Assembly: GCA_041648455.1 (NCBI GenBank)
Contig: JBAZOZ010000002.1
Span: forward strand, 1,531 to 65,530
Direction: 5' to 3'
DNA from: Candidatus Pacearchaeota archaeon
GTDB taxonomy: Archaea > Nanobdellota > Nanobdellia > Pacearchaeales > GW2011-AR1
Length of the DNA stretch: 64,000 bases
Below the pieces are notes generated by a model. It was not told the origin of the DNA. It was given only the letters and a program-made list of their open reading frames with translations, and ran no database searches. Positions 1 through 40,851 of this stretch are shown piece by piece. The position numbers were made by a program, and so were the translations under genes. Within the stretch, counting starts at the first letter, position 1, and each line of letters opens with the position of its first letter.

Positions 1-1173
1 TGTTCTTTCATCTACTCTTGTTGGTGGTGGTCCGGAAAATCTATCGTGAATCTTTACAAGAGAAGGCAATTTATCGACAATGTTAACTCTTTCTACAGAT
101 TTTTGCGCGTTTATAATTAAAGATACTTTTAATGCAAACTCTCCACCCTTTGTTCTGACAAAATTGACTTTTTTCTTTAACACTAAATCTGTTGTAGAAA
201 TTCTTTTTACCACTAAAACTATAACTACAATAAAGATAATAATCAGCAAGGGGAAAAGCCAATTTGTTTTTACTTTTATAATCAGCGTCTCGCCGGGTTT
301 TATCGCGTTTTCCCAAGTATAGGAAACTGTCATGCCTTTTCTTTCCACAATATCTGGTTCTGGGCTAAAACTTGTGAAAAGCCTAGAGATAATATTCTTC
401 TTAATTTGTGTTTCTGATTTTTGTATAACATTTCCTTCATTTTTCTTTTCAATTATTTTTGTTGTTACGACCCAGCCATATTCTCTTTTTGTTGTTACAG
501 CAATATCTTTCTCGACGAAATTTATATCCCCATTAATTTCCGTATTTATTTCACCAACATTTATTTCACCTTTTAAAGTATAATATCCAGCGACTAACTG
601 CTTGAAATCTTCCTTGTTCAAATTTATATCAAACTCTTTTTTTTCATACGAAGATAAGGAAAATGATTTTTCGAGCTTAAAGAACGGCGAAGAAATTTTT
701 GCGTTGATTTTTTCAAAATTAAAATTCTTTCTATTCTTGATAAATATTTTTATAGAATTTGATTCGGGGTTTATGTCGTCGGCGCCGATTTCAAAAGCAT
801 CCTTTAAATTAATTATTTCAAAAGTTAATTTTTCTTCTTGGTCTTGAGAGTCATGTCCTTTAATGAAATATTGAAGAGTGTAATATCCTAAGTAATTTGA
901 AAGATCTCTCGGATAAACTTTGAATTTTATTTCTTTTGTTTCTCCTGATTTTATTTGAATCGGTTCTTTTGGAAACATATCAAATCCGAAAAGATTGTAA
1001 AATGTAAATTCGTCCGTTGCTCCTGCATTATATATTTTTAAATCGAAACTCGCTGGCTCATTTAAATCGCTAATCATAATCTCGTCTTGTGAAGTTTTTT
1101 CTATTTTAACATTGACTGCTAAAATGGAAGGCAAGAATAACAAAATTAATACAAGTAAATATAATTTTCTCAT
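1..1173 (-). CDS. Secreted/membrane protein, 3'-truncated by window edge (N-terminal signal peptide MRKLYLLVLILLFLPSILA, internal TM segment)
   Basis: Hand translation of the minus strand from ATG at 1173 gives an uninterrupted frame through position 1 (about 391 aa). The ORF track omits it because there is no stop inside the window. Plus-strand track ORFs 80..322, 332..583 and 602..847 overlap it and look spurious. Confidence 0.6.
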   Translation of the reverse strand, partial: MRKLYLLVLILLFLPSILAVNVKIEKTSQDEIMISDLNEPASFDLKIYNAGATDEFTFYNLFGFDMFPKEPIQIKSGETKEIKFKVYPRDLSNYLGYYTLQYFIKGHDSQDQEEKLTFEIINLKDAFEIGADDINPESNSIKIFIKNRKNFNFEKINAKISSPFFKLEKSFSLSSYEKKEFDINLNKEDFKQLVAGYYTLKGEINVGEINTEINGDINFVEKDIAVTTKREYGWVVTTKIIEKKNEGNVIQKSETQIKKNIISRLFTSFSPEPDIVERKGMTVSYTWENAIKPGETLIIKVKTNWLFPLLIIIFIVVIVLVVKRISTTDLVLKKKVNFVRTKGGEFALKVSLIINAQKSVERVNIVDKLPSLVKIHDRFSGPPPTRVDERT

Positions 1174-1174
1174 T

Positions 1175-1275
1175 TTAAAAATTTCCTATTTTGAAAAGGC
1201 AAAAAACTTCCTGTTTTTCTTACTTTCAAAATTTCCTGCTTTGTAAGTGGTGAAAAACTTCCTGTTTTTCTCATG
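1175..1275 (-). repeat. AGGAA-core AT-rich tandem module array directly upstream of the start codon at 1173 (member of dispersed family)
   Basis: Reverse complement reads ...aaaacaggaagtttttcacc...gcaggaaattttgaaagtaagaaaaacaggaagttttttgcc...aaaataggaaatttttaaaATG. The same unit types are seen upstream of at least 12 other genes. Confidence 0.7.
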
Positions 1276-1317
1276 TTAGAATTATATTATCTCTATTTAA
1301 AAACTTTATTATATAAA

Positions 1318-1821
1318 TTATCTCTTTCCTTCTAAATCTAAATAAGCCTTTGCTTGGCCGAGAAATTCGTCGCAGCCGCCAATTATTTTGTCTTCCATCT
1401 GATCTACTCTGCTTGGAATGACCCATTTTTCATAAATACTTCTTAAAAATTTGTTGAACGCGTTTGTTTCGAATTTTCCTTTGTAATCTCTCGTCAGAGT
1501 TCCCTTGATTGAAATTTCTACTGAACCCTTGTTGGTGTTTACTTTTTTTCCACCCTCGGTTATTTCAACTTTTGTCAATCCGAGAATTTTGAAAGTTATC
1601 TTTGCATCAAACTTAAAATAATCTGTGATTTTTCTGAATCCAGTCCACATAATATCAATATTTTTCGAATCTCCTAGAATTTTTTCAACATATTTATCTT
1701 CATTCATTAAAAGAAGTGTCTCTTCAGTAAGCCAGTCATAACAGAATTTGTAAAAATCCGCGAAGTTAAAAACTCCATTATATTTTACCTTGCTTGAAAA
1801 TACTATGTCTTTTTCAGCCAT
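1318..1821 (-). CDS. Hypothetical protein (168 aa); start taken at MAEKD
   Basis: ORF 1318..1863 in track. The first 14 codons lie inside the conserved hairpin element, so ATG at 1821 (MAEKDIVF) is preferred. Confidence 0.45.
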   Translation of the reverse strand: MAEKDIVFSSKVKYNGVFNFADFYKFCYDWLTEETLLLMNEDKYVEKILGDSKNIDIMWTGFRKITDYFKFDAKITFKILGLTKVEITEGGKKVNTNKGSVEISIKGTLTRDYKGKFETNAFNKFLRSIYEKWVIPSRVDQMEDKIIGGCDEFLGQAKAYLDLEGKR

Positions 1822-2090
1822 TAAAAGAAACCCGCTGGTTTCTTTTGAACTTCCTCGAAACACTGAACGGTGGTATCTCTCTTTGCCTCCGAGGATACCA
1901 CGAAAAAGAAACTAAATTTATTTTGAATCTCCTCGAAATGCTGAACGGTGGTATCTCTCTTTGCCTCCGAGGATACCACGAAAAAGAAACTAAATTTATT
2001 TTGAATCTCCTCGAAATGCTGAACGGTGGCATCTTTATTAGCCTCCGAGGATACCACGAAAAAGAAACCATTGGTAAAATACCTCTGGTG
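1822..2090 (+). repeat. Conserved hairpin (AAAAGAAACCCGCTGGTTTCTTTT, 1822..1848) followed by three tandem copies of a 78-nt unit (period starts at 1853, 1931, 2009)
   Basis: Direct read: cctcgaaa(c/t)(a/g)ctgaacggtggtatctctctttgcctccgaggataccacgaaaaagaaactaaatttattttgaatct occurs three times, the third copy degenerate. 78 is a multiple of 3, so three ORF-track entries (1794..2102, 1814..2071, 1821..2138) are repeat artefacts. Confidence 0.85.
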
Positions 2091-2183
2091 AAAATCGTGT
2101 AAAAGAAACCCGTTATTTAATTCAATTAAATTTATCATTTTCCCCGTTTATATAATAAAAAAAGATTGTTTAAATATTTATTG

Positions 2184-2750
2184 TTAGAGAGAATTCCTGC
2201 AGTTTTCGCAGATTAACATTCCATTAAATCTGTACAAAAAATCGGTGTTTCCGCATTCTTCACAAATTCCTTCTATTATTCTTTCTTTTGCTTTTTTTAT
2301 TCTTTTTAATTTCTCAGATTCCTCTCTGATTTTTGAAAGTTCTTCTATTTCAGGGTAAATTTCTGGATTGAAGGTAAGTATATCTTTTATAGTTATAATT
2401 CCGACGAGCTCTCCTTCTTGAATTACCGGCAGTTTTTCAAATTTCAATTTTTTCATTTTGTTCAGTGCGTCATTGATTGTTGCATCCGGCCGGATTATTG
2501 CTATTTTTTTTGGAGAAATGTCACTCGCTTTTATTTTTGACAAATCTTCTTTTGATTTTTTAATAAGCGCCCATAGAATATCTTTTTGAGCAAGGAATCC
2601 GACAAGCTTCTTTTTTCTGGTTTTGTCGACGAGAAGAAGGCTACCAACTTTCTTTTTAATCATGGTTTTTGCGCAATCCAGAAGATTTGTGTCCGGACTC
2701 ACTATTATGGGATATTGAGTCATGACATCTGATACAAGGATGTTTTTCAT
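2184..2750 (-). CDS. CBS-domain pair protein with C-terminal CxxC...CxxC zinc ribbon
   Basis: Two CBS-like segments (VSDVMTQYPIIVSPDT...; IIRPDATINDALNKM...) and C-terminal CEECGNTDF...CENCRNS. Confidence 0.65.
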   Translation of the reverse strand: MKNILVSDVMTQYPIIVSPDTNLLDCAKTMIKKKVGSLLLVDKTRKKKLVGFLAQKDILWALIKKSKEDLSKIKASDISPKKIAIIRPDATINDALNKMKKLKFEKLPVIQEGELVGIITIKDILTFNPEIYPEIEELSKIREESEKLKRIKKAKERIIEGICEECGNTDFLYRFNGMLICENCRNSL

Positions 2751-3043
2751 CTTAGTTGATATTCTAAGGTATAAATTCCTTATAAAAGTTATTCAACACT
2801 GAATAGTTACTTTAAAGGACGACAATGTTTAAAAGAGGTCTTGCTCGACTTTGTCGAGAGATGAGTTGCTCAAATTTCTACTCACGACTTCGCACGAGTT
2901 ATTAATATTTCACATTTCTCTCTACCACAAAATCGTTCGACTTTATCAGGAATTTTCGTTGATAAAATTGTTAATCAAAAAATTCGGCATATATCTTTTA
3001 TATTTTATCTTATTTTCATCACAATAATCTTTAAATAGAAATT

Positions 3044-5480: not shown

Positions 5481-5681
5481 TTTTGCTGTATTAATAAATA
5501 TTAAATTAAGAAACATCATCCATCCAAGATAATAAATTACACCTTTTTTGTTCATGAAAAAATAAAGAAAAGTTAATAAAAATTAGTATAGTGCAATTAA
5601 AAGACATTATTAATTTCCAATCCTATCTTTTGATATATTCGAGAAAACGAAATAGCAGATAGGAATTATTTTGATCTCTTA

Positions 5682-5990
5682 TTATAAATATTCTATTAAT
5701 TTATATATTTCATAACCAGCTCCTACGATACCGATAAGTAATGATAAACAACCTGTTGTTGCTTTACTATTTTTATTAACATTTGAAACGCAACTACAAT
5801 GGTCTTCACAATTACAGGTGTCCGCACATCTACAAACAATACAATCCTTATACTTATCATCGCTATTACACGGTGAAAATGTCTTATCCGAATTTAAATT
5901 TCTCTCTTTATTAAATTCATAAATTCCATTGATTTCTTGCTTTCCTAAAACTTCTCCATTCAAATCTTCTAATCTAAATTTATCTGTCAT
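5682..5990 (-). CDS. Cys-rich RiPP precursor-like peptide C (102 aa from MTDKF). Conserved leader plus a Cys-rich core (10 Cys) plus a C-terminal hydrophobic tail
   Basis: MTDKFRLEDLNGEVLGKQEINGIYEFNKERNLNSDKTFSPC...CIVCRCADTCNCEDHCSCV...TTGCLSLLIGIVGAGYEIYKLIEYL. The track ORF starts at a TTG at 6008; ATG at 5990 is preferred. Confidence 0.7.
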   Translation of the reverse strand: MTDKFRLEDLNGEVLGKQEINGIYEFNKERNLNSDKTFSPCNSDDKYKDCIVCRCADTCNCEDHCSCVSNVNKNSKATTGCLSLLIGIVGAGYEIYKLIEYL

Positions 5991-6004
5991 TTTATTTCTC
6001 GTTA

Positions 6005-6298
6005 TCAATATCTTATTAATTTATATATTTCATAACCAGCTCCTACGATTCCGCCAAGCAATAACAAACAACCAGTCGGTGATTTATGGTTTTGACTTTT
6101 ATTAACTCCATGATCTTCACAAACACAAGTATCTGCGCATCTACAAACAATCGGACAAGGGTTTTCATTTCTAGTACACGGCGAAAATGTCCTATCATCA
6201 TTTAATTCTCGTCGATTTTTAAACTGATAAACCCCATTAATTTCTTGTTCTCCTAAAACTCCTTCTTCTACATCTTCAAGTCTAAATTTGTTTTCCAT
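6005..6298 (-). CDS. Cys-rich RiPP precursor-like peptide B (97 aa). Same leader, a Cys-rich core (7 Cys) and a C-terminal hydrophobic tail
   Basis: MENKFRLEDVEEGVLGEQEINGVYQFKNRRELNDDRTFSPC...CPIVCRCADTCVCEDHG...TGCLLLLGGIVGAGYEIYKLIRY. Confidence 0.7.
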   Translation of the reverse strand: MENKFRLEDVEEGVLGEQEINGVYQFKNRRELNDDRTFSPCTRNENPCPIVCRCADTCVCEDHGVNKSQNHKSPTGCLLLLGGIVGAGYEIYKLIRY

Positions 6299-6315
6299 TT
6301 ATTTACGAATGGGTT

Positions 6316-6519
6316 TTAAATCGTTGCGCAGCCACAATGCTCTGAACAATAAGGTGAACAAACGTTAGGACAAGTTTTACCAGCACACTCACACATACCG
6401 GTACAGAATGTCCTATCTGAAACTAAGTTTCTTGTCGTTTTAAAATCATAAATTCCATTAATTTCTTGCTCTTCTTCAAATTCTTCACCAATATTATCTA
6501 ATCTAAATTTGTTTCCCAT
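6316..6519 (-). CDS. Cys-rich RiPP precursor-like peptide A (67 aa). Same leader and a 10-Cys core; no tail
   Basis: MGNKFRLDNIGEEFEEEQEINGIYDFKTTRNLVSDRTFCTGMCECAGKTCPNVCSPYCSEHCGCATI. Its start overlaps the maturase stop by 17 nt. Confidence 0.7.
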   Translation of the reverse strand: MGNKFRLDNIGEEFEEEQEINGIYDFKTTRNLVSDRTFCTGMCECAGKTCPNVCSPYCSEHCGCATI

Positions 6520-7876
6520 TTTGACCCCCTTTCAATTTTTGTTTTATTTCGTGAAATAAAATCCCCTGATTTATTGAACATCTTGAATTATTAATTGTGT
6601 CTTCTAAACTTCTTGATTGAGCATAGCCCTTCGCAAGACAATCACCACCACAATTATATTTCGCAAAACAATCTCTACAATTAGGAATATTTTCAACAAC
6701 TCTTCCTTGCAATCTTTTTATTTTTGTATCATCAAACTCAAATTGATTTTTATCAGGATTGTATTGCCCAACAATGAATATTTCAGCCATATCATCATCT
6801 TTTCTAGAGACCTCTAAGCACGTTGTAACTCTCCCTTCAGGAGATACAAGGAAGTTTTTCCCAGCAGCACCGCAAAAAGAATTATGGATTCCTTCTAATT
6901 TAGCTCCAGAATAATAAATCCCGACCTCTAATTTTTCAGCAGTTTGTTTAGCCTCAAGAAGATATTTTAGATAATCTTCTGGAGATGGTGCTCTTGCTTT
7001 TGTTGTTTTGCATCTTCCGCATTCAAACAAAGGCTCTAAATGAAAACTTTTATTTGAAGAAATTGAGTGAAAAAATTCTAAAATCTCAGACATTCTTGGT
7101 ACACTCTCTGCAGTAATTGTTGCCCTTATTCCATAAGGATATTTTTCTTCTTCTAATATTTTTATTGTCTCAACAACATAATCAGAAGAAGGCATAAACC
7201 GGTGGTTTGGTCCTGCCATTGGTCTCTGTGCATCTTGAATGTCTGCAGTACCGTCGAGAGAAATGTTTAATCTGTCAATATTTTTTAAAATCCATTCCAA
7301 ATCTCTATGATTTAAATTATTAAAAACACCGTTTGTTGCGCTTGAAACTCTTCCTTTCAAATTATTTTTTTCTGTCTGCTTATTAAAATATTCCACAGAT
7401 CTTTTTAAGAAATCTATATTTCCTCTTAAAAGAGGTTCTCCTCCCCCATGAAATCCAAGATGAATATCTTTGTTTCCGACTTTTAAACTATTTTTGACTA
7501 CTAAATCAATTGCAGATTTTGCAACATCAAATTCCATAATCTGTCCAACTCTTTCACCACCATGTGAATAACAATAAACACATCTGAGATTACAATTATA
7601 AGTTGGCATAAGTGTAATACTCGTAGGCTCATATTCAGAACCTTCTTTTTTTATATTGCAACTAGATTGAGATTCAACTAAAATTTTAGTCTTGATTAAT
7701 TGTTCTTTTATTTCTGGTTGTAAAGAAGATTCTTCTCCTTTTTTTATTTTTTTCAAAGCACCCACAACTCCCGAGCTCACAGAAACAACAGAACCCTCTA
7801 AAGGAACATAAAGAATAAATTTGTCTTCATCTGGGATAACAAAAAGCTCGTTATTGATTTCCATCTTATTTAACAC
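6503..7876 (-). CDS. Radical SAM / SPASM-domain peptide-modifying enzyme (anSME/sactisynthase-like) with N-terminal RRE/PqqD-like region
   Basis: CNLRCVYC (CX3CX2C) and GGGEPLL. The C-terminal SPASM pattern is FCGAAG...TTC...CRDCFAKYNCGGDC. The first 95 aa (FVIPDEDKFILYVPLEGSVVSV) resemble a peptide-binding RRE. Confidence 0.85.
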   Translation of the reverse strand: MLNKMEINNELFVIPDEDKFILYVPLEGSVVSVSSGVVGALKKIKKGEESSLQPEIKEQLIKTKILVESQSSCNIKKEGSEYEPTSITLMPTYNCNLRCVYCYSHGGERVGQIMEFDVAKSAIDLVVKNSLKVGNKDIHLGFHGGGEPLLRGNIDFLKRSVEYFNKQTEKNNLKGRVSSATNGVFNNLNHRDLEWILKNIDRLNISLDGTADIQDAQRPMAGPNHRFMPSSDYVVETIKILEEEKYPYGIRATITAESVPRMSEILEFFHSISSNKSFHLEPLFECGRCKTTKARAPSPEDYLKYLLEAKQTAEKLEVGIYYSGAKLEGIHNSFCGAAGKNFLVSPEGRVTTCLEVSRKDDDMAEIFIVGQYNPDKNQFEFDDTKIKRLQGRVVENIPNCRDCFAKYNCGGDCLAKGYAQSRSLEDTINNSRCSINQGILFHEIKQKLKGGQNGKQI

Positions 7877-10223: not shown

Positions 10224-10331
10224 AGTTTGATGTGGTAAATGTGTGGACAGACTTAGATATCTTCGATTTCCAGTACATTCAATTCTCTTTAATATCGAAT
10301 TGAAGTGGCTCGAACCCTTCTCGTTCGAATA

Positions 10332-10501
10332 TGCGCGATACGAGAATCGAACTCGTGTCTCAACGTTTTTGCTTTCTCGCGATTTCCGTCGGAGGCAATT
10401 TAAGAAATCGCCTTACAGCGTCGAAAAAGGAAGGTGTGTGAGAGGAAACCATAGGTTTCCTTCATTGGCAACGTTACGTTCTACCACTAAACCAATCGCG
10501 C
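10332..10501 (-). tRNA. tRNA-Gly(GCC) with a 98-nt intron at canonical position 37/38 (intron 10367..10464)
   Basis: Minus-strand read GCGCGAT-TG-GTTT-AGTGGTA-GAAC-G-TAACG-TTGCCA[intron]A-CGTTG-AGAC-ACGAG-TTCGATT-CTCGT-ATCGCGC-A. Acceptor 7/7, anticodon stem 5/5 (one G-U), T-stem perfect. The intron holds an 8-bp hairpin GCGATTTC..GAAATCGC. Confidence 0.6.
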
Positions 10502-10564
10502 ATAAATAATTCATAGAAAAATAATATTTAAAAGTTGCTGTGGCAACTTTTAACTCTTCAAGAT

Positions 10565-14356: not shown

Positions 14357-14427
14357 TTGGCTTCAGAGAAAAGTTCTGAATATAAAATGAAAAAAACAAG
14401 AAATTTTTTACCTCTTAAACACAGGAT

Positions 14428-14823
14428 GTGTTCAAGATGAGAAGACAAAGAAATTTGATTGTTGGTAAGGAAGAAGCCATTCCGGTTGGAGCGGTTTTTC
14501 AAAGAAGTAAATATTATTTTATCGTCGGGAATTCTGATGAGAATGGAATGATTAATTATTGTTCTATTGATAGATTTGCTTTTGCATCTGAAAGATTAAA
14601 ATATAATGATGGAATAGAACACCTCACAATTCAAGAAAGCCCGTTTTATTTTTCAAGGCAGCACATCAATTGGATTAGAAATTATCTTAATAATAACGAA
14701 GCCAAAAATCTTAGCAAAATAGAAATAGATAATCTTAAGCAAGATTTAGATGTTGCAGCCAGAGATGGATTAAAAAAGGATGTTAAGAAGTTGATTGAAA
14801 TTTGTTCTGAGAAGAAGATTTAA
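14428..14823 (+). CDS. Hypothetical protein (131 aa)
   Basis: ORF track only. Confidence 0.35.
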   Translation: MFKMRRQRNLIVGKEEAIPVGAVFQRSKYYFIVGNSDENGMINYCSIDRFAFASERLKYNDGIEHLTIQESPFYFSRQHINWIRNYLNNNEAKNLSKIEIDNLKQDLDVAARDGLKKDVKKLIEICSEKKI

Positions 14824-17322: not shown

Positions 17323-18180
17323 TTATTTTATGATATCCTTAACTAATTGCACCATGACATCCAAAAAATCTTGAGTTTTTTTCTGCCATTCGTCTATTTC
17401 AACACCTTTCAAATCGGTTACTTCCCCATGAGAAATTTTTTTATGAAGCAAGAATAAATCTCTGTAATCAATGACATATTTCATTTTTAATTTTCCTGTA
17501 TTCACAAAAGTTTCTTTCAAATCAATTGGAATGTGTTCTGGCGACGGAGGAAGAACGTTTGATGCAATCAACGCCGCGTGAGAAGAATCAACCATTGCCC
17601 AAAATAATCCTTCTATAGAATTTAATTCTGATGCTTTGCTTCTTGCTAAATGCTGGGGTGCTCTTTCAAGACAGCTGTAAATTGCTTCGGGGGTTGATTT
17701 TATTTTTCCCGTAATTAATAAATATTTTAATGGTTCAAAAAATCCTGCGAAGTCAATCAGAGATTCTCCATATCGCAATATATTTATAATGACGGGGTCG
17801 CCCCTCATCAAATCTTCCCACCAGGTGCTTAATTTCACCGTGTTTATGTGCAGTTCTCTGCTGTAAGGATTTGCTCTTACCATCTTATCGAGCTCTTCTC
17901 TATACCAGGCAATTAGCTCTTGGTCCCATTTTATTGAAACGTCGTCTATAACAATGATTATATCAATATCAGAGCCTTTGGTGCTTGTTTGCTTTATTGT
18001 CGAGCCGAATAGAATTGTTGATTTTACTATTTTGTTGAATTTTTGGTAAACCTTTGTTGCAAAGTCCATTGCTATTTCAGATTCTGTTTTCAAATTCAAT
18101 GTTGAAACATTTTTTTTATTAGTTATTTTAGGTTTGTCTACAACTTTAGAAATTTTCTTCACACTCTTTTCTTTTTTCAT
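17323..18180 (-). CDS. Nucleotidyltransferase-domain protein (MNT-like N-terminus plus HEPN-like C-terminus); paralog of 12794..14356
   Basis: ILFGSTIKQTSTKGSDIDIIIVIDD and DPVIINILRYGESLID...GKIKSTPEAI. An AGGAA-type array lies upstream at 18181..18236. Confidence 0.55.
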   Translation of the reverse strand: MKKEKSVKKISKVVDKPKITNKKNVSTLNLKTESEIAMDFATKVYQKFNKIVKSTILFGSTIKQTSTKGSDIDIIIVIDDVSIKWDQELIAWYREELDKMVRANPYSRELHINTVKLSTWWEDLMRGDPVIINILRYGESLIDFAGFFEPLKYLLITGKIKSTPEAIYSCLERAPQHLARSKASELNSIEGLFWAMVDSSHAALIASNVLPPSPEHIPIDLKETFVNTGKLKMKYVIDYRDLFLLHKKISHGEVTDLKGVEIDEWQKKTQDFLDVMVQLVKDIIK

Positions 18181-18813
18181 TTTGAAAAATTCCTGTTTTT
18201 GAAAGGCAAAAAACTTCTTGTTTTTTTCATTTTCTTTTTATTAACATCATTTCAACAATGACAGAAAATATTAGTGCTCCTATTGAGAGATTAATATCCA
18301 CTGCGTTGAAACATGCGGTTTTTAATGTTCTTATTCCTATGAGGAATATCACTGCAAAGTCAATTAGCAAAGGCAGTATTCTTAACATCCTAAATTATTC
18401 CAAATGCCCTCGCTAATAAAACCACAATGATTATTATTCCTATTATCCATAATATCTTATCTAAATTTCTTTGCAACCAATTAGTCTTCTTCACCATCTT
18501 TTATAATTTTGTTATGTCAATATAGTTTTTAAATTTGTTTATTTTAATCGTGCTTGTAAACTCGCAGATTCTCTTTCCCACCCAACCCGCGCCTGTGATT
18601 TGTTATTATCTTTAAATTTGTCAAATCACAAATGCTCTGCTCCCATTTCGAATTTATTATTTAATTTAAAGACGGTAAATTCAAAATGTTCGCCAACCCA
18701 GATAACGTCAACAAATGTTTTATCATTATTATCTAAATACATTAATTAGTTAAACAAATTATCTCAAGAGTTTTTATGTGATCTTCTTTTCTTCAAATTC
18801 AAAAACCAAAATC

Positions 18814-20586
18814 TTATTCCATTCTATTTCCGCTTAATCTGCTTCCTTGCTGTCCAGGTGTTTGACCGCCGAGTTCCGACGGCAATTGTGAAAAACCTGC
18901 ACCGAAAATATTATAATTTCCTTGAGGCAACATTGTTCCATAACCCGAAAAATATCCTTGTTGAAATCCGGTTGATTGATTCCAATATGGAGCCATTTTC
19001 ATTGAATAAATTGGAGAACCGAAAGCTTCTAGAGATTCCTGAACTGGCGGAGATTTAAAATGCTGCCACCAACTTGCTGCTTCTATAACTTTTTTCGCTT
19101 CAAAACCTTCCTTGCCTAATTTTTCCATCATTTCTTTTATCGGAACATTTCCCATACCCATCGGCAATTCAGTATGTTCAAATCCAAAATTATCAGAAAG
19201 ATGAATATGTTTCAGAAGCGGTTTTATTTTTTCTGTTTCTTCAACAATATCTTTTGATTCGTAACCGTATTTTCTCATCATATTTATATGGCCGACATCC
19301 CAAGTTACTCCGATTAATTTTTCTGCCTGACTTTTTGCTTCGCTTTCCGAAAGACCTTTTTCTCTTCCTATTTTAACAAATTCATCTCTTGCTTTCTCTA
19401 CGATTTCTTTAAGTTCATGTCCCCTTGAAAAAGCTCCGCCAGCAGGAGGATTTTCAATTGCGATTATCGGTGCTGCTTTCCACTTTCCTTCTCTAACTTT
19501 TTCATAAGAATCCCAAGCAACATTCGCAAAAGTCTTTATTGTTTTTTCTTTTGCAAATTCATCGAGGGGTTTATAAATTTCTGGAATTGAAATCCTATTA
19601 TTTAAAGTTTCTAATCCACTTGCAAGAATTTCTTTGGTTAATTCTACTCTTCTCAAACTATCTTGAGGTAATTCATTGATTTTAGTTACCTTAGATTCTA
19701 TTTCTTTTTTAAGTGCATCTAATTTTGGTTTATCTTCGTGTGTTGCATTATTGTATGCTAAATTATAAAGTTCTTTTAATTCCCTGTAAGAATCATTTAA
19801 AAATGCTGTTCCAATATTATAATTTGAAAGAGCTTTTTTTTCTTCTGGCAATAATTCTTTTCCTGCTTCTTTTTCTGCTTTTGCTCCTAATCTAAGATAT
19901 TTTGTTGACTCAATAAATTCTCCTGCCCTTTCAGTATTGTAGGCCAAGTGTGATAGTGAAGAACGCCAAGTTTGTTCATTTTGCTTCTTAATTTCATTTT
20001 TTATTTCTTTGGATTCTTCTCCCGGGAAATTTCTTTCTTTTAAGGAAATTCTATTGATTGAACCTGTTTCTGGATTTATCATCAATCCTTCTTCAACTTC
20101 TCCTCTCTTGGGTTTTATTTGTCCGGGAAGAATTGCAGAAGAATGAAATACAATTGGAGAATTTCCGTCTGGATTTATTTCATGTGCTCTCTCTACGGCA
20201 AATTTCATTTGCCTTTCTGCTGCCTGTCTGCCCGTTTCACTCCACCCTTCTTTTGTAAAACCGGAAGCCTCAATCAGAGGACCGTGAACAGTTACATCGA
20301 CGCCAGTTAGTTTTGAAAGCCTGTTAATTTCTTTCAAATGTTGTTGAGGAATAGATTCAAAAACTTCGGGACTAACTCCTTCCAACTCAATATGTTTTAC
20401 TCCGGTTGATAATTTAGAAGACATTTCTTGAAGCCAGTTCGCATTTCTTGGGTCTGTTGTTAATGCAAATTGTCCTGCGGGGATATGAGTTCCAACGAAA
20501 CCATATCCATAACCTTTTTCAGGGTCGAGAGAAGAATATCCTCCCTGATATAAATCGCTTGTTTTATACTCTTTTTTTTCTACCAC
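18814..20586 (-). CDS. Xylose-isomerase-like TIM-barrel (sugar-phosphate isomerase/epimerase family) protein with large insertion and Q/G/Y-rich low-complexity C-terminal tail
   Basis: IELEGVSPEVFE near the N-terminus and VTWDVGHINMM...HIHLSDN near the C-terminus. Tail YWNQSTGFQQGYFSGYGTMLPQGNYNIFGAGFSQLP. Confidence 0.45.
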   Translation of the reverse strand: MVEKKEYKTSDLYQGGYSSLDPEKGYGYGFVGTHIPAGQFALTTDPRNANWLQEMSSKLSTGVKHIELEGVSPEVFESIPQQHLKEINRLSKLTGVDVTVHGPLIEASGFTKEGWSETGRQAAERQMKFAVERAHEINPDGNSPIVFHSSAILPGQIKPKRGEVEEGLMINPETGSINRISLKERNFPGEESKEIKNEIKKQNEQTWRSSLSHLAYNTERAGEFIESTKYLRLGAKAEKEAGKELLPEEKKALSNYNIGTAFLNDSYRELKELYNLAYNNATHEDKPKLDALKKEIESKVTKINELPQDSLRRVELTKEILASGLETLNNRISIPEIYKPLDEFAKEKTIKTFANVAWDSYEKVREGKWKAAPIIAIENPPAGGAFSRGHELKEIVEKARDEFVKIGREKGLSESEAKSQAEKLIGVTWDVGHINMMRKYGYESKDIVEETEKIKPLLKHIHLSDNFGFEHTELPMGMGNVPIKEMMEKLGKEGFEAKKVIEAASWWQHFKSPPVQESLEAFGSPIYSMKMAPYWNQSTGFQQGYFSGYGTMLPQGNYNIFGAGFSQLPSELGGQTPGQQGSRLSGNRME

Positions 20587-20648
20587 TTTGAATTTTTCCT
20601 AAATTTAAAGGACAGAAAATTTTCTTAAATTTTCTGTATGTTTATATT

Positions 20649-21982: not shown

Positions 21983-22119
21983 TACGTGTAGCTCACCATT
22001 GAAGACAACCTACGGGTTTCTCTCACACACTCTCCCTCTCGTATCGGATGGGCGATTTCTTTCCAATGCCTCCGATAAAAATCGCATCGCCTTCGCTGCA
22101 CTACGTGTAGCTCACCATT
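21983..22119 (+). repeat. Insertion-like element: 18-nt direct repeats (tacgtgtagctcaccatt at 21983..22000 and 22102..22119) flanking a hairpin GCGATTTC...TGCCTCCGA...AAAATCGC (22052..22084)
   Basis: The direct repeat encodes the C-terminus plus stop (MVSYT*) of gene 22101..23513, which is duplicated. The hairpin is the same family as the tRNA-Gly intron hairpin. Confidence 0.6.
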
Positions 22120-23513
22120 CCATGAGATTTCTTGTAAATATCGAATAAATTAAATATTGTATCAGATGCCTTTTTTGCGGCTAATGGACGGACATGCTCT
22201 TTTTCAACCCAGTCGTCAACTTTTACTATTACATCTTTTTTGTTTTCTTTTTTATCTGATTTTTTTCCTTCTTTTTTGTCATAACCACCGATTAAAGCCA
22301 TGAAAGGATTTGAATTATCTTTTGATTTTTCTTTTTCCTTATCTTCTTTTTCTTCCAAAAATTCATTTATTTCTTCCTGCATTTGATCAAGACTTTCTGT
22401 TGTTGTGCCCTCAATTAAAGACAAAACATCTCCTAAATCGGATTTTTCCAATTCATAATTTAATTTTTTTAGTTCATCTTCGTTTAACGCGTAAGCCCGG
22501 AAAGTTATTTCAGATTTTCCTATAAAATTTCCCTGCTGTGGAACTGCTAAAAAAACAAAATCCACCAATACGCAAGAATAATATTTTCTTTTTCCCTTTA
22601 ATGATCTGGACTTGTAAAAATCCTGCGGCAAATCGCCTGCGAGCGCAGCGTCGTCAACTTTCATTTCTGATTTTCCTAGCAAGGTTAATTCAAGAATAGT
22701 TCTGTTAAATGCATTTACTGCGTAAGGATTTCTTCCTTGTTCTTTCATCTCGAGTTTTTGTGCTGCTAATAAATATGGTCTTACCCAACGAGAATAAAGT
22801 TTTACATTATTAACCTGGCTTCTTAAATAAGTTCTTTCAATTTCGTATCTTTTCCTCAATTCTTTTTCAGATTGCGTGAGCCATAAATTAAATTCAAGAA
22901 TTCTCGGTTTCAGAATTCTTTTTACTCTATCATTCAAATCAATTTTATCTACATCTTTCTCATCTTTTACTGCAAGAAATGCGTCTCTTAGCGTCTGGAA
23001 TCCTAATTGCCCGGTTGTCATTGCATGAATGCTACCCTGGCTTCTCTGTAAATCAACTTTGTCAAGCCAGATTTGTTTTAAAGAAAGCTTTGCGGCTTCC
23101 GAAGTATTTTCATTTTTTGATTTCAAATCGTCGTAAACTTGCAGTCTTATTTTAAATTCTTTCAAATCGTAAATTATATTTAAAATGCTTCGTGTTAAAA
23201 CTCCGACGCTCTGCATCATCTTTGAAGCTTCTTCTTGCATTCTCGCCATCTTCATTCCAGATTCTGAAAAGTGCGGGCCTCCAGGCATTGAAGAAAAATT
23301 ATCAATAAGCTTTTCGGTTGATAATCCAAAATCATTCATTAAGTCAATTATAAAATAATAAATCGGCTCGAGGGTTTCTGCGTATGACTCGTAAGATAAG
23401 GAGTGTTCGGACTCGGGCACAGAATCAATTAAACCTTTTTTCTTTTTTTCTATTCTTTTTTTGTAATAAGGAGAAATTTCTTCGATTATGCCGTGAATTG
23501 TTTTTACTTCCAT
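22101..23513 (-). CDS. Hypothetical protein (470 aa)
   Basis: ORF track; no recognisable motif. Confidence 0.45.
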   Translation of the reverse strand: MEVKTIHGIIEEISPYYKKRIEKKKKGLIDSVPESEHSLSYESYAETLEPIYYFIIDLMNDFGLSTEKLIDNFSSMPGGPHFSESGMKMARMQEEASKMMQSVGVLTRSILNIIYDLKEFKIRLQVYDDLKSKNENTSEAAKLSLKQIWLDKVDLQRSQGSIHAMTTGQLGFQTLRDAFLAVKDEKDVDKIDLNDRVKRILKPRILEFNLWLTQSEKELRKRYEIERTYLRSQVNNVKLYSRWVRPYLLAAQKLEMKEQGRNPYAVNAFNRTILELTLLGKSEMKVDDAALAGDLPQDFYKSRSLKGKRKYYSCVLVDFVFLAVPQQGNFIGKSEITFRAYALNEDELKKLNYELEKSDLGDVLSLIEGTTTESLDQMQEEINEFLEEKEDKEKEKSKDNSNPFMALIGGYDKKEGKKSDKKENKKDVIVKVDDWVEKEHVRPLAAKKASDTIFNLFDIYKKSHGMVSYT

Positions 23514-24452: not shown

Positions 24453-24709
24453 TTGATGAATATGAAAATACAAAAATTTCTAATTTTTGTCCTTCAAAAA
24501 CAAGAAGTTTTAGAAGAAATAGGAAATTTTTTACCTTTTACAGAAATTAGAAATTTCTGTCCTACGGAAAATAGGAAAAACAAAAAAGTTTTTCATCTCT
24601 CCAAATCAAGAAGATTTGAAGATAAGAAATTTTCCGTCCCGTTCAAAACGGGAGATTTTGAAGGTTACAAAACAGGAAGTTTTGAAAGTAAAAATAGGAA
24701 ATTTGAAAA
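24453..24709 (+). repeat. AGGAA-core module array upstream of the GluRS-like gene; the first 80 nt are a conserved block shared with 39489.. and 62373..
   Basis: atgaaaatacaaaaatttctaatttttgtccttcaaaaacaagaagttttagaagaaataggaaattttttacctttta...aacaggaagttttgaaagtaaaaataggaaatttgaaaaATG. Confidence 0.8.
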
Positions 24710-28753: not shown

Positions 28754-29022
28754 TCTATTTTCTAAGATTTTTTATGACAGCTAATTATCGGCATCACGAG
28801 TAGAGAATTTGATTTCTTTAGCTGTGCGTTTTCTGAAGACAATATTTTTATACCATATTCAACTGAATTAAATGATAGATGCTTTGCGATTTCCAGCGGA
28901 GGCAATTTAAGAAATCGTTTTCCGCGTCGAGAAGGAAGTTGATTGCCTCAAGAATGAAAATTCTTGATGGTGTTCAGGAATCTTTGATTCCTGACATAAA
29001 GAAACCGCAGGTATCTTACAAT

Positions 29023-29094
29023 GGCGATTGTAGTTTAACGGTAGAATGTGTGACTGTGGCTCGCAAGACGAGGGTTCGACTCCCTCCTTTCGCC
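29023..29094 (+). tRNA. tRNA-His(GTG) with encoded G-1 and C73
   Basis: g-GCGATTG-TA-GTTT-AACGGTA-GAAT-G-TGTGA-CTGTGGC-TCGCA-AGAC-GAGGG-TTCGACT-CCCTC-CTTTCGC-C. Anticodon and T stems pair; the acceptor has two U-U mismatches (5-68, 6-67). Confidence 0.55.
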
Positions 29095-29305
29095 CTTTCA
29101 GTCGTGAGTCGAATAAAAAAGGAGAAACAAAGATGAAAAAAATAAAATATTCAATTGCAAAATCTGGGCTGTGCCTTTGCACAGACGGAATTAAAGATTT
29201 TGCAAATATAGAAAATACAGAAATCGAAGATTTCTGTCCTTACAAAACAGGAAGTTTTGAAAGTAGGAAATTTTCTATCTCATTAAAATTCAGGAGAATT
29301 TTAAG

Positions 29306-29707
29306 ATGAAAATCTTATTTGTCTGCAAGCACAACAGATTTAGAAGCAAGGTAGCTGAAGCATATTTCAATAAAATAAATAAAAACAAGAATATTAAAGT
29401 AGCAAGTGCCGGAATTTTCAAGGGGTTTCCAACTGAACCCATCGTCGTTAAAATTGGAAAAAGATACGGATTAAATATAAACAAAAATACAAATGGGTTA
29501 AAAGAAGAAGCAGTTAAAAAGATTGATTTATTGATAATTGTAGCGAATGACGTTCCTGCATATTTATTTAAAAGCAAAGTAAAGAATATCCTTGTCTGGA
29601 AAATTCGTGATGCAAATTCCCTCGATAAAAAAGAAATTGAAAAGATTATGAAAAAAATATTTAAGAAGATTGATGAATTAAATAGAAAAATAGGGAAACT
29701 AAAATGA
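29306..29707 (+). CDS. Low-molecular-weight protein tyrosine phosphatase / ArsC-like
   Basis: ILFVCKHNRFRS (CX5R P-loop) at the N-terminus. Confidence 0.75.
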   Translation: MKILFVCKHNRFRSKVAEAYFNKINKNKNIKVASAGIFKGFPTEPIVVKIGKRYGLNINKNTNGLKEEAVKKIDLLIIVANDVPAYLFKSKVKNILVWKIRDANSLDKKEIEKIMKKIFKKIDELNRKIGKLK

Positions 29708-36838: not shown

Positions 36839-37027
36839 TTAACGAGTTTTGATTGCAAACTCGCCCTTGCTTTTTAATTTTAATTTCTGCGCGATTTCGG
36901 ATTTTTCTGGATCTAAAATAATTACTCTTCCTTTGAATCCTTCTGTTGATTCACGAGATTCACATTTAGGACATTTTTCTAATTCATGTATTGTACTGCA
37001 AATTTTGCATGCTTTTTGTTTTGCCAT
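36839..37027 (-). CDS. spt4: Transcription elongation factor Spt4 / RNAP subunit E''
   Basis: MAKQKACKICSTIHELEKCPKCES...GRVIILDPEKSEIAQKL. Confidence 0.8.
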   Translation of the reverse strand: MAKQKACKICSTIHELEKCPKCESRESTEGFKGRVIILDPEKSEIAQKLKLKSKGEFAIKTR

Positions 37028-37215
37028 TAAAAGAACCCCGCTGGTTTCCTCAGAAATTGAAAATTTCTGGGACATTCAAAATTTGCATTTTGAAGTTTTT
37101 GAACTTCCTCAAATTGTGGAACGGCGATATGAAAAACTTTATTGTTTTTCATCCTTCCGAAACAAGAAGTTTCGAAAGTTTTCAGAAATGCCTCCGACGA
37201 AAATTGCATAAGAAA
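37028..37215 (+). repeat. Second locus of the hairpin-plus-78-nt-unit element family, abutting the spt4 start codon
   Basis: ttaaaagaaccccgctggtttcc...tgaacttcctcaaattgtggaacggcgatatg...gcctccgacgaaaattgcataagaaaca parallels 1822..1940. Confidence 0.65.
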
Positions 37216-37235
37216 CAATTTATTTAATTTAATTA

Positions 37236-37850
37236 TCATTTTTTCTTTACCTTTTTTTCTTTTCCTTTAACTGCTTTCTCCTCGAATTTTGCGGCTTTAA
37301 CAGCTTCTTTTTGTTTTTTTATTGCATCTTCTTTAGTCCATTCTAATTTTCCAAGTCCGGGCTGGCGCATTGTCAATCCTATTTTTGGCTCGTCTCCCTT
37401 GTAACTTATTGCAACAACTCTTGCCAAACAAGTATCTCCTGATTTTAAAATTCTTTTTGAAGTTTTCCCAGTTAGCGTATTTGACTTGCTGAAAGTCACA
37501 TAATCATCCATTGTTTGAGAAATATGAATCATTCCCTGCATAACCCCCATATTTACAAAAGCTCCGAAATTAGTTATTTCTGAAATTGTTCCGTAAACTA
37601 GTTCTTGAAGTTCTGGCTTCCACGCAAGTAGTTTGAATGTTGATTTGTAATAAGTTGCACCGTCTCCCGGAATTATCACTCCCTCTCCGACGCTTAAAAC
37701 TTCAATTACTGCGACGGCTTTTCCGATTTCTCTATCATAATAATTTTTGTAAGTTTCGTGCAGCTGGTTTTCAACAGCCTCACCAGTTGGCATACCAAAT
37801 AGTTTCGGTTCAACTCTTACATAATCTTCAACTTCTGTTACATAGAACAT
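37236..37850 (-). CDS. rpoE: DNA-directed RNA polymerase subunit E' (Rpo7) with S1 domain
   Basis: MFYVTEVEDYVRVEPKLFG, then an S1 domain and a basic tail. Confidence 0.75.
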   Translation of the reverse strand: MFYVTEVEDYVRVEPKLFGMPTGEAVENQLHETYKNYYDREIGKAVAVIEVLSVGEGVIIPGDGATYYKSTFKLLAWKPELQELVYGTISEITNFGAFVNMGVMQGMIHISQTMDDYVTFSKSNTLTGKTSKRILKSGDTCLARVVAISYKGDEPKIGLTMRQPGLGKLEWTKEDAIKKQKEAVKAAKFEEKAVKGKEKKVKKK

Positions 37851-39487: not shown

Positions 39488-39632
39488 AAATACAAAAATT
39501 AAAAATTTTTGTCCTTCAAGATGGAAAACAAAAAAGTTTTCCATCCCTAAAAATCAGGAAGATTTTAAGGAAACAAGAATTTTTAGAAGAAATAAGAAAT
39601 TTTTTACCTTTTAAAAACAGGAAATTTTTAAA
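39488..39632 (+). repeat. AGGAA-core module array upstream of 39633
   Basis: atgaaaatacaaaaattaaaaatttttgtccttcaaga...aatcaggaagattttaagg...aaataagaaattttttaccttttaaaaacaggaaatttttaaaATG. Confidence 0.8.
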
Positions 39633-40703: not shown

Positions 40704-40830
40704 TTAAAAAGAACCCGCTGGTTCTTTTTAGAAATCTCCTCTAATGCTGAACGACGATTTCTAAATGCCTCCGGTGAAATCGTATAAAAGAACCCAAATA
40801 TTTTTCCTCTGGTAGAATCGCATAAAAGAT
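40704..40830 (+). repeat. Third, degenerate locus of the hairpin-plus-78-nt-unit element, abutting the tRNA 3' end
   Basis: ttaaaaagaacccgctggttctttttagaaatctcctctaatgctgaacgacgatttctaaatgcctccggtgaaatcg. Confidence 0.6.
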
Positions 40831-40851
40831 TATAATTATTTTATATACTAA

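Follow-up and report, generated by a model that had tools for sequence, protein, structure and literature searches.

Why should a hairpin-bearing repeat recur, within one archaeal genome, directly against start codons and tRNA genes? Three such loci had been noted in a 64,000-nucleotide stretch of a Candidatus Pacearchaeota genome (the window), and the original prediction offered three explanations: a regulatory RNA structure in 5' untranslated leaders, a small non-coding RNA family, or a MITE-like element that targets gene or tRNA edges. The repeat, termed the F element, is a module of ~80 nt with an internal 8-9-bp hairpin and a terminal hairpin (AAAAGAAACC/GGUUUCUUUU), present singly or in tandem. 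F makes up a repeat family, non-autonomous and variable in copy number, in Pacearchaeota/Woesearchaeota-like DPANN archaea. Its presence at gene edges is probably, if only just, that of a new hairpin element that is non-autonomous and whose effects tRNA splicing or termination-reinitiation would neutralise.

The F element and its copies in the window

A covariance model built from F copies of other genomes gives 77 matches (best, 108 bits) and places ~9 units in the 64-kb window. It recovers locus 1 (units of 55.6, 43.6, and 96.8 bits), locus 3 (80 bits), and locus 2 (~22-30 bits). The three loci first described are genuine; three further copies had been overlooked, in a tRNA-Gly intron, at the 3' end of a gene, and in the leader of tRNA-His.

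1822..2138, minus strand: locus 1, complete F array (Tandem Repeats Finder, covariance model)
2138-2112, minus strand: head of locus 1, ATGATAAATTTAATTGAATTAAATAAC
2111-2062, minus strand: partial unit of locus 1
2061-1981, 1980-1909, and 1905-1822, minus strand: three units of locus 1
1823-1846, stem the same on both strands: terminal hairpin AAAAGAAACC-CGCT-GGTTTCTTTT
1821..2138, minus strand: leader ORF of 105 codons, MINLIELNN...FEEVQKKPAGFF, then stop
10367..10465, minus strand: 99-nt canonical 37/38 intron of tRNA-Gly(GCC) (10331-10502), its body an opposite-strand F unit
22001..22101, minus strand: F unit at the 3' end of gene 22101-23513 (minus strand; covariance model, 25.7 bits)
28872..29023, plus strand: F-type leader of tRNA-His (29024-29095; covariance model)
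37028..37239, minus strand: locus 2, F between rpoE' and spt4 (covariance model)
37027..37239, minus strand: 70-codon ORF that exactly spans the rpoE'-spt4 gap
40704..40830, minus strand: locus 3, one full unit (40705-40787) and a partial one (covariance model, 80 bits)

Locus 1 had been described as a hairpin plus three 78-nt units, each with its own hairpin, and this description holds. The terminal hairpin is followed by an array that Tandem Repeats Finder places at 1839-2068 (period 78, 2.9 copies, 94% matches), and each unit contains an 8-bp stem, GTGGTATC/GATACCAC, with the loop ...GCCTCCGAG. With up to 3 mismatches allowed, the 22-mer TTAAAAGAAACCCGCTGGTTTC matches at three places, where chance predicts 0.01. 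Both strands fold more stably than shuffles, with z = -3.3 for the minus strand and -5.6 for the plus strand. The leader ORF begins 4 nt 3' of an SD-like GGGG, near a TATA-like TTATTATATAAA at ~2147-2160 (minus strand); its TAA overlaps the ATG (1821-1819) of gene 1318-1821 (TAATG), 1 nt from the outer end of the terminal hairpin. In a close syntenic relative (L075) the orthologous array is ~179 nt (2.3 units) shorter. Locus 1 is probably a leader lately amplified to 3.5 units. A CRISPR-like array was rejected: the 78-nt units are near-identical throughout and lack spacers. Tandem 78-nt units had been ascribed to all three loci; locus 1 is an array, and loci 2 and 3 are not.

Locus 2 consists of a head (37239-37217), one unit broken by two nested small-hairpin blocks, and a slightly degenerate terminal hairpin. 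Perfect small hairpins occupy 37051-37069, 37075-37094, and 37129-37152. As predicted, the locus lies directly upstream of spt4: it ends at the ATG (37027-37025) of a gene whose product matches Pfam Spt4 (PF06093). A hairpin just 5' of a minus-strand ATG is found at both loci 1 and 2. The 70-codon ORF, also predicted by an independent gene caller, shows coupling on either side: the rpoE' TGA overlaps its ATG (ATGA), and the spt4 ATG overlaps its TAA (TAATG). Among the relatives compared, rpoE'-spt4 is a conserved operon, and F is absent from this junction in all 25 relatives whose junction was read. In those, the two genes abut or are separated by unrelated small ORFs.

The tRNA-like neighbour of locus 3 is indeed a tRNA gene, tRNA-Trp (40633-40703, plus strand). 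Its 3' end is abutted by the terminal hairpin (40705-40730); the locus begins 1 nt past the tRNA and lacks an intact ORF. The copy at 22001-22101 (model match, 22000-22089) lies between two 18-nt direct repeats, TACGTGTAGCTCACCATT (21983-22000 and 22102-22119), each of which ends in a stop codon in the same frame. The tRNA-His leader (model match, 28883-28942; 22.7 bits) begins with ATGATAG, ~24 nt 3' of a TATA-like TTTTTATA; its parts are one unit, a degenerate terminal hairpin, and two additional hairpins (28948-28967 and 28974-28994).

Conservation beyond this genome, which the original prediction had left to be checked, is clear: a conserved F 23-mer is present on 53 metagenome contigs, and four predicted proteins in other assemblies carry ...FEEVQKKPAGFF at their end or within. 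On these contigs the distance from the terminal hairpin to a start codon, or to the 5' or 3' end of a tRNA, is 0-3 nt. Other copies occupy position 37/38 of tRNA-Lys(CUU), tRNA-Thr(GGU), and the window's tRNA-Gly(GCC), or gene 3' ends (ftsY, and 22001-22101 in the window). An rpoP-like gene is preceded by F in two contigs. Orientation before protein genes is biased 16:1, the reverse case being L085. CCAT as a required target motif was rejected: the distance to the ATG is not fixed (0 to 2 nt), and the tRNA junctions differ.

The right end of F is exact (...GGGTTTCTTTTA), whereas 3-20 nt of filler occur at the ragged left end. The sole inverted relation inside a unit is GGTTTCTTTT ... AAAAGAAACC. 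Depending on the strand, the loop of the internal hairpin is GGAGGC or GCCUCC; among aligned copies, neither the AGG of this loop nor GAGGAAG varies. The terminal-hairpin stem is likewise invariant in 41 copies of other contigs, copies ascertained with that very sequence. Copies from one metagenome tend to have a common stem subtype.

No Rfam family matches F. Rfam 15 at gathering score finds only tRNAs in the window, and at E <= 5 finds nothing in 1780-2180 and only noise around locus 3. Viral contigs scanned for the 23-mer contain no copies, and literature searches on tRNA introns or repeat elements in Pacearchaeota or DPANN archaea turned up no account of F.

Introns, leader frames, and the internal stem

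The tRNA-Gly(GCC) copy shows a second setting. The gene matches the Rfam tRNA model at 50.2 bits, with 101 nt inserted into its anticodon loop, and Aragorn reports tRNA-Gly(gcc) i(38,99). The covariance model matches 10375-10464 on the plus strand (35.4 bits, E = 6e-6). Segment 10367-10465 has the features of a BHB tRNA intron (its removal leaves a cloverleaf, and its junctions show the helix, 3-nt bulge, 4-bp helix, 3-nt bulge pattern), as do the F copies in tRNA-Lys(ctt) and tRNA-Thr(ggt) on other contigs; the tRNA-Lys(CUU) introns represent 6 distinct loci on 8 contigs. The hBH motifs are in canonical register in each tRNA: TAACG-TTGC-CAA ... GCAA-AAA-CGTTG in tRNA-Gly; CCAGA-CUCU-UAA ... 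GGAG-AAA-UCUGG in tRNA-Lys; and CGTCA-TTGG-TAA ... CCAA-ACA-TGACG, with an inner helix TAAAA/TTTTA, in tRNA-Thr. Loci 1-3 are not within tRNAs. There a generic BHB-motif scan is unspecific, because the background in this AT-rich DNA is 41 hits per kb per strand; such a scan is informative only for the tRNA introns. In one relative (L081), the intron at this site of tRNA-Gly(GCC) is 53 nt long and unrelated, and F therefore probably entered an already existing intron. A C/D-box or H/ACA guide RNA within the intron was rejected: there is no C box (RUGAUGA) and no Rfam match.

Copies next to start codons share a different property. An in-frame ATG at least 25 codons upstream, together with a stop at the junction, is found in 16 of 16 start-adjacent copies but in only 1 of 28 others (p = 4e-11), in a sample whose ascertainment by the exact 23-mer, and by TTTTA followed by ATG, itself produces the junction stop and part of the apparent conservation. 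The upstream ATG alone is present in 16/16 and 5/28, respectively. These frames start at TAAAATG or ATGA junctions or behind an SD sequence, and their stop (TAA, TGA, or TAG) overlaps or abuts the real ATG. The junction variants TTTTAATG, TTTTAAATG, TTTTGAATG, and TTTTAGATG all keep the stop in the same frame, and the frame stays open despite stem-subtype indels and, at locus 2, ~100 nt of nested insertions. ORFs ending in KPAGFF had been dismissed as artefacts of the hairpin. The contrast in open frames argues otherwise: they are probably translated coupling ORFs.

The encoded peptide itself is not conserved, because its N-terminal two thirds are read in different frames across stem subtypes (RFHRRQLEIAV, VVSSEAKRDTTV, or AIFVGGNSENC). 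Amino acid conservation beyond that of the DNA is not seen in the F ORFs, nor is a Pfam domain.

Covariation had been proposed as a check on the predicted structure, and the internal stem does covary: changes occur on both sides in 7 of 8 pairs, and the observed score was reached by 0 of 500 shuffles. Pair types (G·U 7, A·C 2) single out neither strand. Folding energies give a slight edge to the other strand for the internal hairpin and to the sense strand for the whole unit.

Apparent mobility and competing readings

F behaves as if it were mobile or duplicative. At L44e-S3Ae, one relative (L042) has an empty junction and five species have a filled one, and no F was found in ~550 kb around rpoE' of at least 30 relatives. 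Insertions are flanked by target direct repeats of 8-9, 18, 20, 32, 39, and 43 nt. The two copies of several duplications differ almost only at synonymous sites (8 of 9 differences in L054, 4 of 4 in L085), so simple insertion followed by neutral decay fails as an account. A transposase, integrase, reverse transcriptase, or splicing endonuclease is absent from Pfam tables of nearly the whole window; the first three are also absent near any copy examined.

Of the three original explanations, the MITE-like one fits best. In its favour F is small, has many copies at non-homologous sites, varies in presence between relatives at empty and filled sites, and is flanked by target duplications; terminal inverted repeats and a duplication of fixed length, typical of MITEs, are both lacking. 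The exact right end, the ragged left end, and the long, variable duplications suggest that copying is polar and anchored at one end, unlike the cut-and-paste of a classical transposase. The duplication lengths and the ragged left edge match no textbook transposition mechanism.

How might such insertions be survived? We propose that F persists only where the host can neutralise it; transcription, splicing, translation, re-initiation, and copying are here inferred from sequence. In the anticodon loop, F lies within a canonical BHB intron at 37/38 and presumably is cut out by the tRNA splicing endonuclease. Copies flanking a tRNA 5' or 3' end presumably are trimmed as leader or trailer. Before protein genes, F in its preferred orientation lies precisely in the gap that separates the original initiation signal from the real ATG, with a leader frame that opens at an ATG coupled to the upstream stop, or behind an SD sequence, and ends at the real ATG. 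Ribosomes would translate through the F hairpins and then re-initiate at the real gene by termination-reinitiation coupling, which would keep operons such as rpoE'-spt4 and L44e-S3Ae expressed. Insertion at gene edges may thus be tolerated because ribosomes appear to read through and restart.

Upstream of S3Ae, F is kept across five species whose S3Ae coding identity is 58-70%, and its conservation roughly equals that of the coding sequence. This retention, and the 16:1 orientation bias, could mean a selected function rather than mere tolerance.

Function in RNA offers other readings. The leader-RNA explanation stands in part: copies before protein genes lie in sense orientation, 3' of the expression signals and 5' of the ATG. 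A regulator of riboswitch type, specific to one gene, looks unlikely: F precedes S3Ae in five species and the locus-1 gene in L075, with a covarying stem, yet it occurs in both orientations and in unrelated contexts. Nor is a known non-coding RNA supported, as there is no Rfam match. More generally, F could be a selected cis-acting leader RNA for highly expressed information-processing genes (spt4, S3Ae, rpoP, tRNAs), whose translation, 5' processing, or stability it would control, its mobility being secondary. The sense strand presents SD-like GGAGG and GAGGAAG, with the terminal hairpin 1-3 nt from the ATG; the hairpin would place GAGGA ~6-7 nt from it. Consistent with this are the S3Ae position conserved in five species, the copies at the L075 counterpart of locus 1 and before the rpoP-like gene in two contigs, the invariant AGG loop and GAGGAAG, and the orientation bias. 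However, the same module is antisense in tRNA introns and lies past tRNA 3' ends and at gene 3' ends; before one protein gene it is reversed (L085); it is absent from the rpoE'-spt4 junction and surroundings of the relatives examined; its unit number changes freely; and wobble pairs (7 versus 2) favour no strand. A selected leader RNA is a serious but unlikely alternative. Excised archaeal tRNA introns can be stable. In a trans-acting RNA system, freed tRNA-Gly, -Lys, or -Thr introns would pair with F leaders on mRNAs or pre-tRNAs and tie their expression or processing to tRNA production. In a single genome, intron copies are complements of leader copies across ~80 nt, same-genome copies tend to have common stem subtypes, the intron loop GCCUCC is anti-SD-like, and excised archaeal tRNA introns are circularised (PMC4033280). 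But such complementarity is automatic for any repeat present in both orientations, and the window's intron stem (GCGATTTC) is unlike that of locus 1 (GTGGTATC), which leaves this idea improbable.

The remaining readings concern the ORF and the hairpin in themselves. A genuine small-protein family of 26-105 residues ending in FEEVQKKPAGFF, perhaps an arrest or leader peptide, could explain why the ORFs are maintained and predicted by gene callers and why their last 12 residues are conserved. Yet the 5' two thirds change frame by subtype while the hairpin persists, the C-terminal conservation equals that of the hairpin DNA, Pfam domains are lacking, and the intron copies and locus 3 have no intact ORF; of all the readings this has the least to commend it. 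Hardly more probable is a bidirectional transcription terminator or boundary element, formed by a palindrome whose hairpin has runs of T on either strand. In archaea, RNA polymerase stops at oligo-T; the 3' arm is T-rich on both strands (GGTTTCTTTT), and T5 follows tRNA-Trp at locus 3. The main objection, on which this reading is rejected, is one of position: at loci 1 and 2 the promoter or upstream cistron is on one side of the hairpin, and the very ATG that would be cut off is on the other. Moreover, a scan for bacterial-type terminators does not call the F hairpin, and termination leaves the 55-nt unit body, the tandem arrays, and the intron copies unexplained.

Known systems and wider meaning

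A neutralised insertion element has several partial precedents. Palindromic repeats such as MITEs, REP/BIME, Neisseria Correia elements, and Rickettsia palindromic elements lie at gene boundaries and are co-transcribed with their neighbours. Like them, F is small, hairpin-forming, multi-copy, and lineage-restricted, and like the Rickettsia elements it is compatible with translation. F differs in lacking clear terminal inverted repeats or a fixed target duplication, in its one exact end, in doubling as a tRNA intron, and in carrying a separate coupled ORF at the start codon rather than lying in frame inside a gene. We know of no partner transposase. Insertion sequences of the IS1634/IS1549 group leave long, variable direct repeats, as F does (8-43 nt), and target-primed retroelements have one exact end and one ragged end with filler. 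F is far smaller than either, has no poly-A or inverted repeats, and has no such enzyme near any copy examined.

In archaea, termination-reinitiation at ATGA and TAATG overlaps is established (PMC6728339, PMC10666635). The F leader stop similarly overlaps or abuts the real start; here the upstream "gene" is a repeat without a conserved peptide, and the coupling is deduced from the arrangement of codons. For introns, the closest parallel is "transposition" in the Thermoproteales (Fujishima et al. 2010, summarised in PMC4033280), which is the only case reported and rests on similar introns in different tRNAs. F introns share the canonical 37/38 site, the hBH motif, and near-identical bodies in Gly, Lys, and Thr tRNAs. 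Unlike BHB introns, F is also abundant outside tRNAs (start codons, tRNA ends, gene 3' ends), and it adds tandem arrays, target duplications, and an open frame, features that the summary in PMC4033280 does not mention. The split tRNA genes of Nanoarchaeum equitans, with complementary leader and trailer (Randau et al. 2005, as summarised there), likewise place structured sequences at 37/38 and at tRNA ends, in a related, reduced archaeal lineage; F-bearing tRNAs are intact or cis-spliced, and separate halves were not seen.

F elements yield many small annotated "genes" in such genomes, and hide tRNA genes from standard tRNA finders. Their leader frames suggest a second, translational way for a compact genome to tolerate insertions in operons, in which a read-through mini-ORF is coupled to the next gene by overlap of stop and start. 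For the origin and spread of archaeal tRNA introns it matters that one family is seen here as introns in three tRNAs, as tRNA leaders and trailers, and as insertions at start codons and gene 3' ends. More speculatively, and rather doubtfully, F may be a case of tRNA-intron gain and spread, in which copies enter transcription-unit edges and anticodon loops and are neutralised by two machineries, BHB splicing for tRNAs and termination-reinitiation for mRNAs. If so, freed introns could also link tRNA production to ribosomal-protein, RNA-polymerase, and tRNA genes, whose leaders they complement. Intron gain by an insertion element becomes directly testable in DPANN archaea.

The F element and its host

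The hairpin AAAAGAAACC-CGCT-GGTTTCTTTT of the original prediction is present at 1823-1846, followed by the claimed 78-nt tandem units (2.9 units, 94% identity), and related copies indeed adjoin the spt4 start (from 37028) and the tRNA-Trp 3′ end (from 40704). A 22-mer of the hairpin occurs three times, versus 0.01 expected. These three loci share a module of about 80 nt, the F element, comprising an internal and a terminal hairpin. The sense strand is defined as the minus strand of loci 1-3, that of the adjacent protein genes, on which the unit loop reads GGAGGC.

Used as a protein query, the 105-codon ORF of locus 1 retrieved, from other assemblies, four predicted proteins whose carboxyl terminus is formed by ...FEEVQKKPAGFF or lies shortly beyond it; their contigs carry the same DNA element 5′ of a protein gene and of tRNA-Thr. 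Fifty-three metagenome contigs, with G+C contents of 25-41%, contain the sense 23-mer TTSAAAAGAAACCAGCGGGKTTC. An alignment of 41 distinct copies provided a covariance model, R1, and the consensus of the unit reads (A)TGCGATTTC-nnCGGAGGCAATTA-GAAATCGC-CGTTCAGnGnTTTGAGGAAGTTC-AAAAGAAACC-AGCG-GGTTTCTTTTA. The proposed covariation check on copies bore out the internal stem: changes occur on both sides in seven of eight pairs (29 cells), with a score reached by none of 500 shuffles, and 97% of cells are paired versus 42-66% with partners slid. The terminal stem is invariant across copies, but it was also the search key. Shuffled sequences fold less well than either strand of locus 1, and neither wobble pairs (7 versus 2) nor folding energies single out one strand as functional. 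The suggested membership in a small noncoding RNA family found no counterpart in Rfam, and the literature on tRNA introns and repeat elements in Pacearchaeota or DPANN yielded no description of F. F is real, reproducible, and widespread.

R1 recovered loci 1-3 and three further copies:

10375-10464, plus strand: F copy (35 bits) within the tRNA-Gly(GCC) intron
22000-22089, minus strand: F copy (26 bits)
28883-28942, plus strand: F copy (23 bits), tRNA-His leader

The last corresponds to a 150-nt leader, with a TATA-like box on one side and tRNA-His on the other.

The window (30.8% G+C) contains archaeal genes: thermosome, rpoE′, spt4, S24e, S27ae, and an intron-containing tRNA. Its RpoE′ shares 63-78% identity with proteins from about 30 Pacearchaeota, Woesearchaeota, and GTDB-Nanoarchaeota MAGs; judged by this identity, the source organism is a DPANN archaeon of that group.

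Copies within and beside genes

One tRNA gene of the window harbors F:

10331-10502, minus strand: tRNA-Gly(GCC), with a 99-nt intron holding an F copy antisense to the tRNA

This gene was missed by default ARAGORN, and was found by Rfam and by ARAGORN with intron search. Its intron comprises, in order, the hairpin AAGGAAACC-TAT-GGTTTCCTC; GCGATTTC-loop(...GCCTCCGAC)-GAAATCGC; and GAGAAAGCAAAA. On other contigs, the canonical 37/38 introns of tRNA-Lys(CUU) (eight contigs, six distinct loci) and tRNA-Thr(GGU) likewise are antisense F modules. Junctions follow the established geometry of the archaeal bulge-helix-bulge (BHB) intron: helix, 3-nt bulge, 4-bp helix, 3-nt bulge. The last intron bases match each anticodon loop (GGAG for CUCU, GCAA for UUGC, CCAA for UUGG), and the intron copies qualify as archaeal BHB tRNA introns. 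On contig L081, the intron that occupies this position of tRNA-Gly(GCC) is 53 nt long and unrelated, and in tRNA-Thr the BHB helices are formed by extra sequence surrounding the F unit; F therefore looks like a guest in pre-existing tRNA introns. Outside introns, some copies lie 3′ of tRNAs in antisense orientation, as at locus 3, and others lie 5′ of tRNAs in sense orientation, 0-3 nt away.

Many other long tRNA introns (42-140 nt) occur on the related contigs L091, L097, L078, L069, and L095, in Leu, Glu, Ile, Ser, and His/Tyr-like tRNAs; small hairpins abound in them, none of them F. Adjoining locus 3, a G+C-richer region (40850-41010, plus strand) contains a long stem, TGTTCAAGAACC ... GGTTCTTGACA, at about 40922-40975, and further hairpins at 40978-40998. 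It matched no Rfam family above noise, and may be an unannotated structured RNA.

Beside protein genes, F is covered by an open reading frame. The gap between rpoE′ and spt4 at locus 2 is taken up precisely by a 70-codon ORF, which shares bases with the rpoE′ stop at its ATG (ATGA) and with the spt4 ATG at its TAA (TAATG). The locus-1 ORF starts behind GGGG and a TATA-like box, and ends as TAATG on gene 1318-1821. Among distinct copies, an in-frame ATG at least 25 codons upstream together with a junction stop is found in 16 of 16 protein-gene copies versus 1 of 28 elsewhere (p = 4e-11); the ATG criterion alone, which is not circular, gives 16/16 versus 5/28. The starts of leader ORFs coincide with TAAAATG or ATGA junctions to the upstream gene, or follow a Shine-Dalgarno sequence; a stop in the same frame is preserved by every one of the junction variants TTTTAATG, TTTTAAATG, TTTTGAATG, and TTTTAGATG. 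No intact ORF is present at locus 3 or in the intron copies, none of which faces a protein gene. Thus the ORFs ending in KPAGFF, originally dismissed as artefacts of the hairpin, probably are not.

The leader peptide is not conserved, its 5′ two thirds being read in differing frames among stem subtypes with different indels, and F does not qualify as a conserved protein. The frame nonetheless stays open despite these indels and, at locus 2, despite nested insertions of two hairpin blocks, about 52 and 48 nt long. An oppositely oriented copy on L085 also is open; its frame begins at a gene start that has been duplicated and closes with a TGA that overlaps the real ATG. This pattern seems to reflect selection on ribosome transit rather than on a product. 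An open frame without a conserved peptide fits termination-reinitiation coupling as described for archaea (PMC6728339, PMC10666635).

Insertion sites and target duplications

About nine F units occur in the 64-kb window, versus none in an R1 scan of approximately 550 kb around rpoE′ in at least 30 relatives. All 25 relatives whose rpoE′-spt4 junction was read lack F there; the two genes abut, overlap, or are parted by unrelated small coupled ORFs. Seven (L005, L006, L009, L010, L015, L017, L028) have unrelated ORFs of 70-150 codons, ATGA-coupled to the rpoE′ stop and ending just 5′ of the spt4 ATG; one encodes a CxxC zinc ribbon. By this comparison, the junction appears to be a preferred site for mini-genes that are inserted and translationally coupled. 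Likewise, the L44e-S3Ae junction is empty in L042 (TAAaaattaaaaATG) and F-filled in five other species. Contig L075 is syntenic with window positions 1-2900 (78-86% identity) and has F at the locus-1 position, in an array about 179 nt (2.3 units) shorter; on this alignment, the three near-identical units of locus 1 are a recent amplification.

Direct repeats of the target flank several copies:

18 nt, 21983-22000 and 22102-22119 (window): 3′ end of gene 22101-23513
39 nt: ftsY 3′ end, three species
43 nt: 3′ end of another gene
20 and 32 nt: gene 5′ ends
8-9 nt: tRNA-Gln 3′ end

The right (hairpin) end of F is exact; the left end carries 3-20 nt of variable filler. This polarity and the variable duplications suggest that copying has its anchor at the hairpin end. 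The surroundings of the copies examined contained no transposase, integrase, or reverse transcriptase, and no viral copies were found.

Differences between the duplicated targets (ftsY 3′ end in L054, L090, and L069; L085 11700-11900; window 21983-22119) are almost all synonymous: eight of nine changed codons in L054, including TGA to TAG, and four of four in L085. Both copies retain a stop codon (TAG and TAA in the window). Neutral decay of a displaced copy after insertion does not predict this pattern; diverged alleles may have recombined, or both copies may be used as alternatives. Orthologous F copies follow tRNA-Gln on related contigs (L066 14-140 and L097 8287-8367). The former has a 46-nt nested insertion in its internal-hairpin loop, so F itself is targeted by further insertions, as at locus 2.

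A second, larger family consists of hairpins of about 25 nt in which one arm is A-rich and the other T-rich; their loops, for example CAGGAAG or TAGGAAA, presumably resemble CsrB-type GGA repeats. The hairpins form tandem arrays directly 5′ of start codons, on the sense strand:

1165-1278 (minus), 14386-14435, 18172-18234 (minus), 20578-20640 (minus), 24456-24713
29209-29309, 39484-39636, 41160-41290, 45032-45118 (minus), 51557-51606
56800-57125, 57590-57715, 60515-60613, 62362-62470

Stems vary among copies yet remain perfectly paired, and a small ORF runs across most arrays, its stop codon overlapping or directly adjoining the real ATG (ATGA, TAAGATG). Of perfect hairpins with a stem of 8 bp or more, the window holds 54 where 22 are expected; relatives' loci are nearly devoid of the loop motif. 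The close relative L075 has an empty site, ...taacATGggaaag, where the window reads ...taacATGagaaaa[about 100-nt array]ATGagaaaa; aligned in this way, the 1165-1278 array has inserted at a leaderless start codon and duplicated 9 nt. Separately, three to four diverged direct repeats (families D4 and D15; about 100-140 nt, spacing about 220-320 nt) lie at 5670-6521 among successive small minus-strand ORFs (5682-6519), and may represent a small gene duplicated in tandem.

Guest element or selected leader

A serious rival holds that the F leader has a selected function beyond tolerance, which is compatible with mobile origin. The F copy 5′ of S3Ae has persisted among species with 58-70% identity in their S3Ae coding DNA, and its conservation is roughly that of the coding DNA: identity is 76-91% for four copies, a range inflated by ascertainment, and 59-65% for the unbiased L085 copy. 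Moreover, orientation 5′ of protein genes is 16:1, and the sense strand displays GGAGG in the loop and GAGGAAG just 5′ of the terminal hairpin. The 5′-UTR regulatory structure originally proposed gains from the covarying stem, this orientation, and S3Ae retention; against it, F also lies antisense in tRNA introns and after tRNAs. The MITE proposal holds for the several sites, the empty and filled junctions, and the target duplications. It fails on structure: MITEs have terminal inverted repeats and a fixed target duplication, and the F family as a whole has neither.

The known kinds closest to F include small palindromic repeats (MITEs, REPs, Correia elements, Rickettsia palindromic elements). 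Coupled overlapping ORFs are also among them, as is the intron "transposition" of BHB tRNA introns in Thermoproteales (PMC4033280). Most likely, F is a non-autonomous hairpin element that resides in tRNA introns and at gene boundaries, where splicing or translational coupling would keep it harmless.
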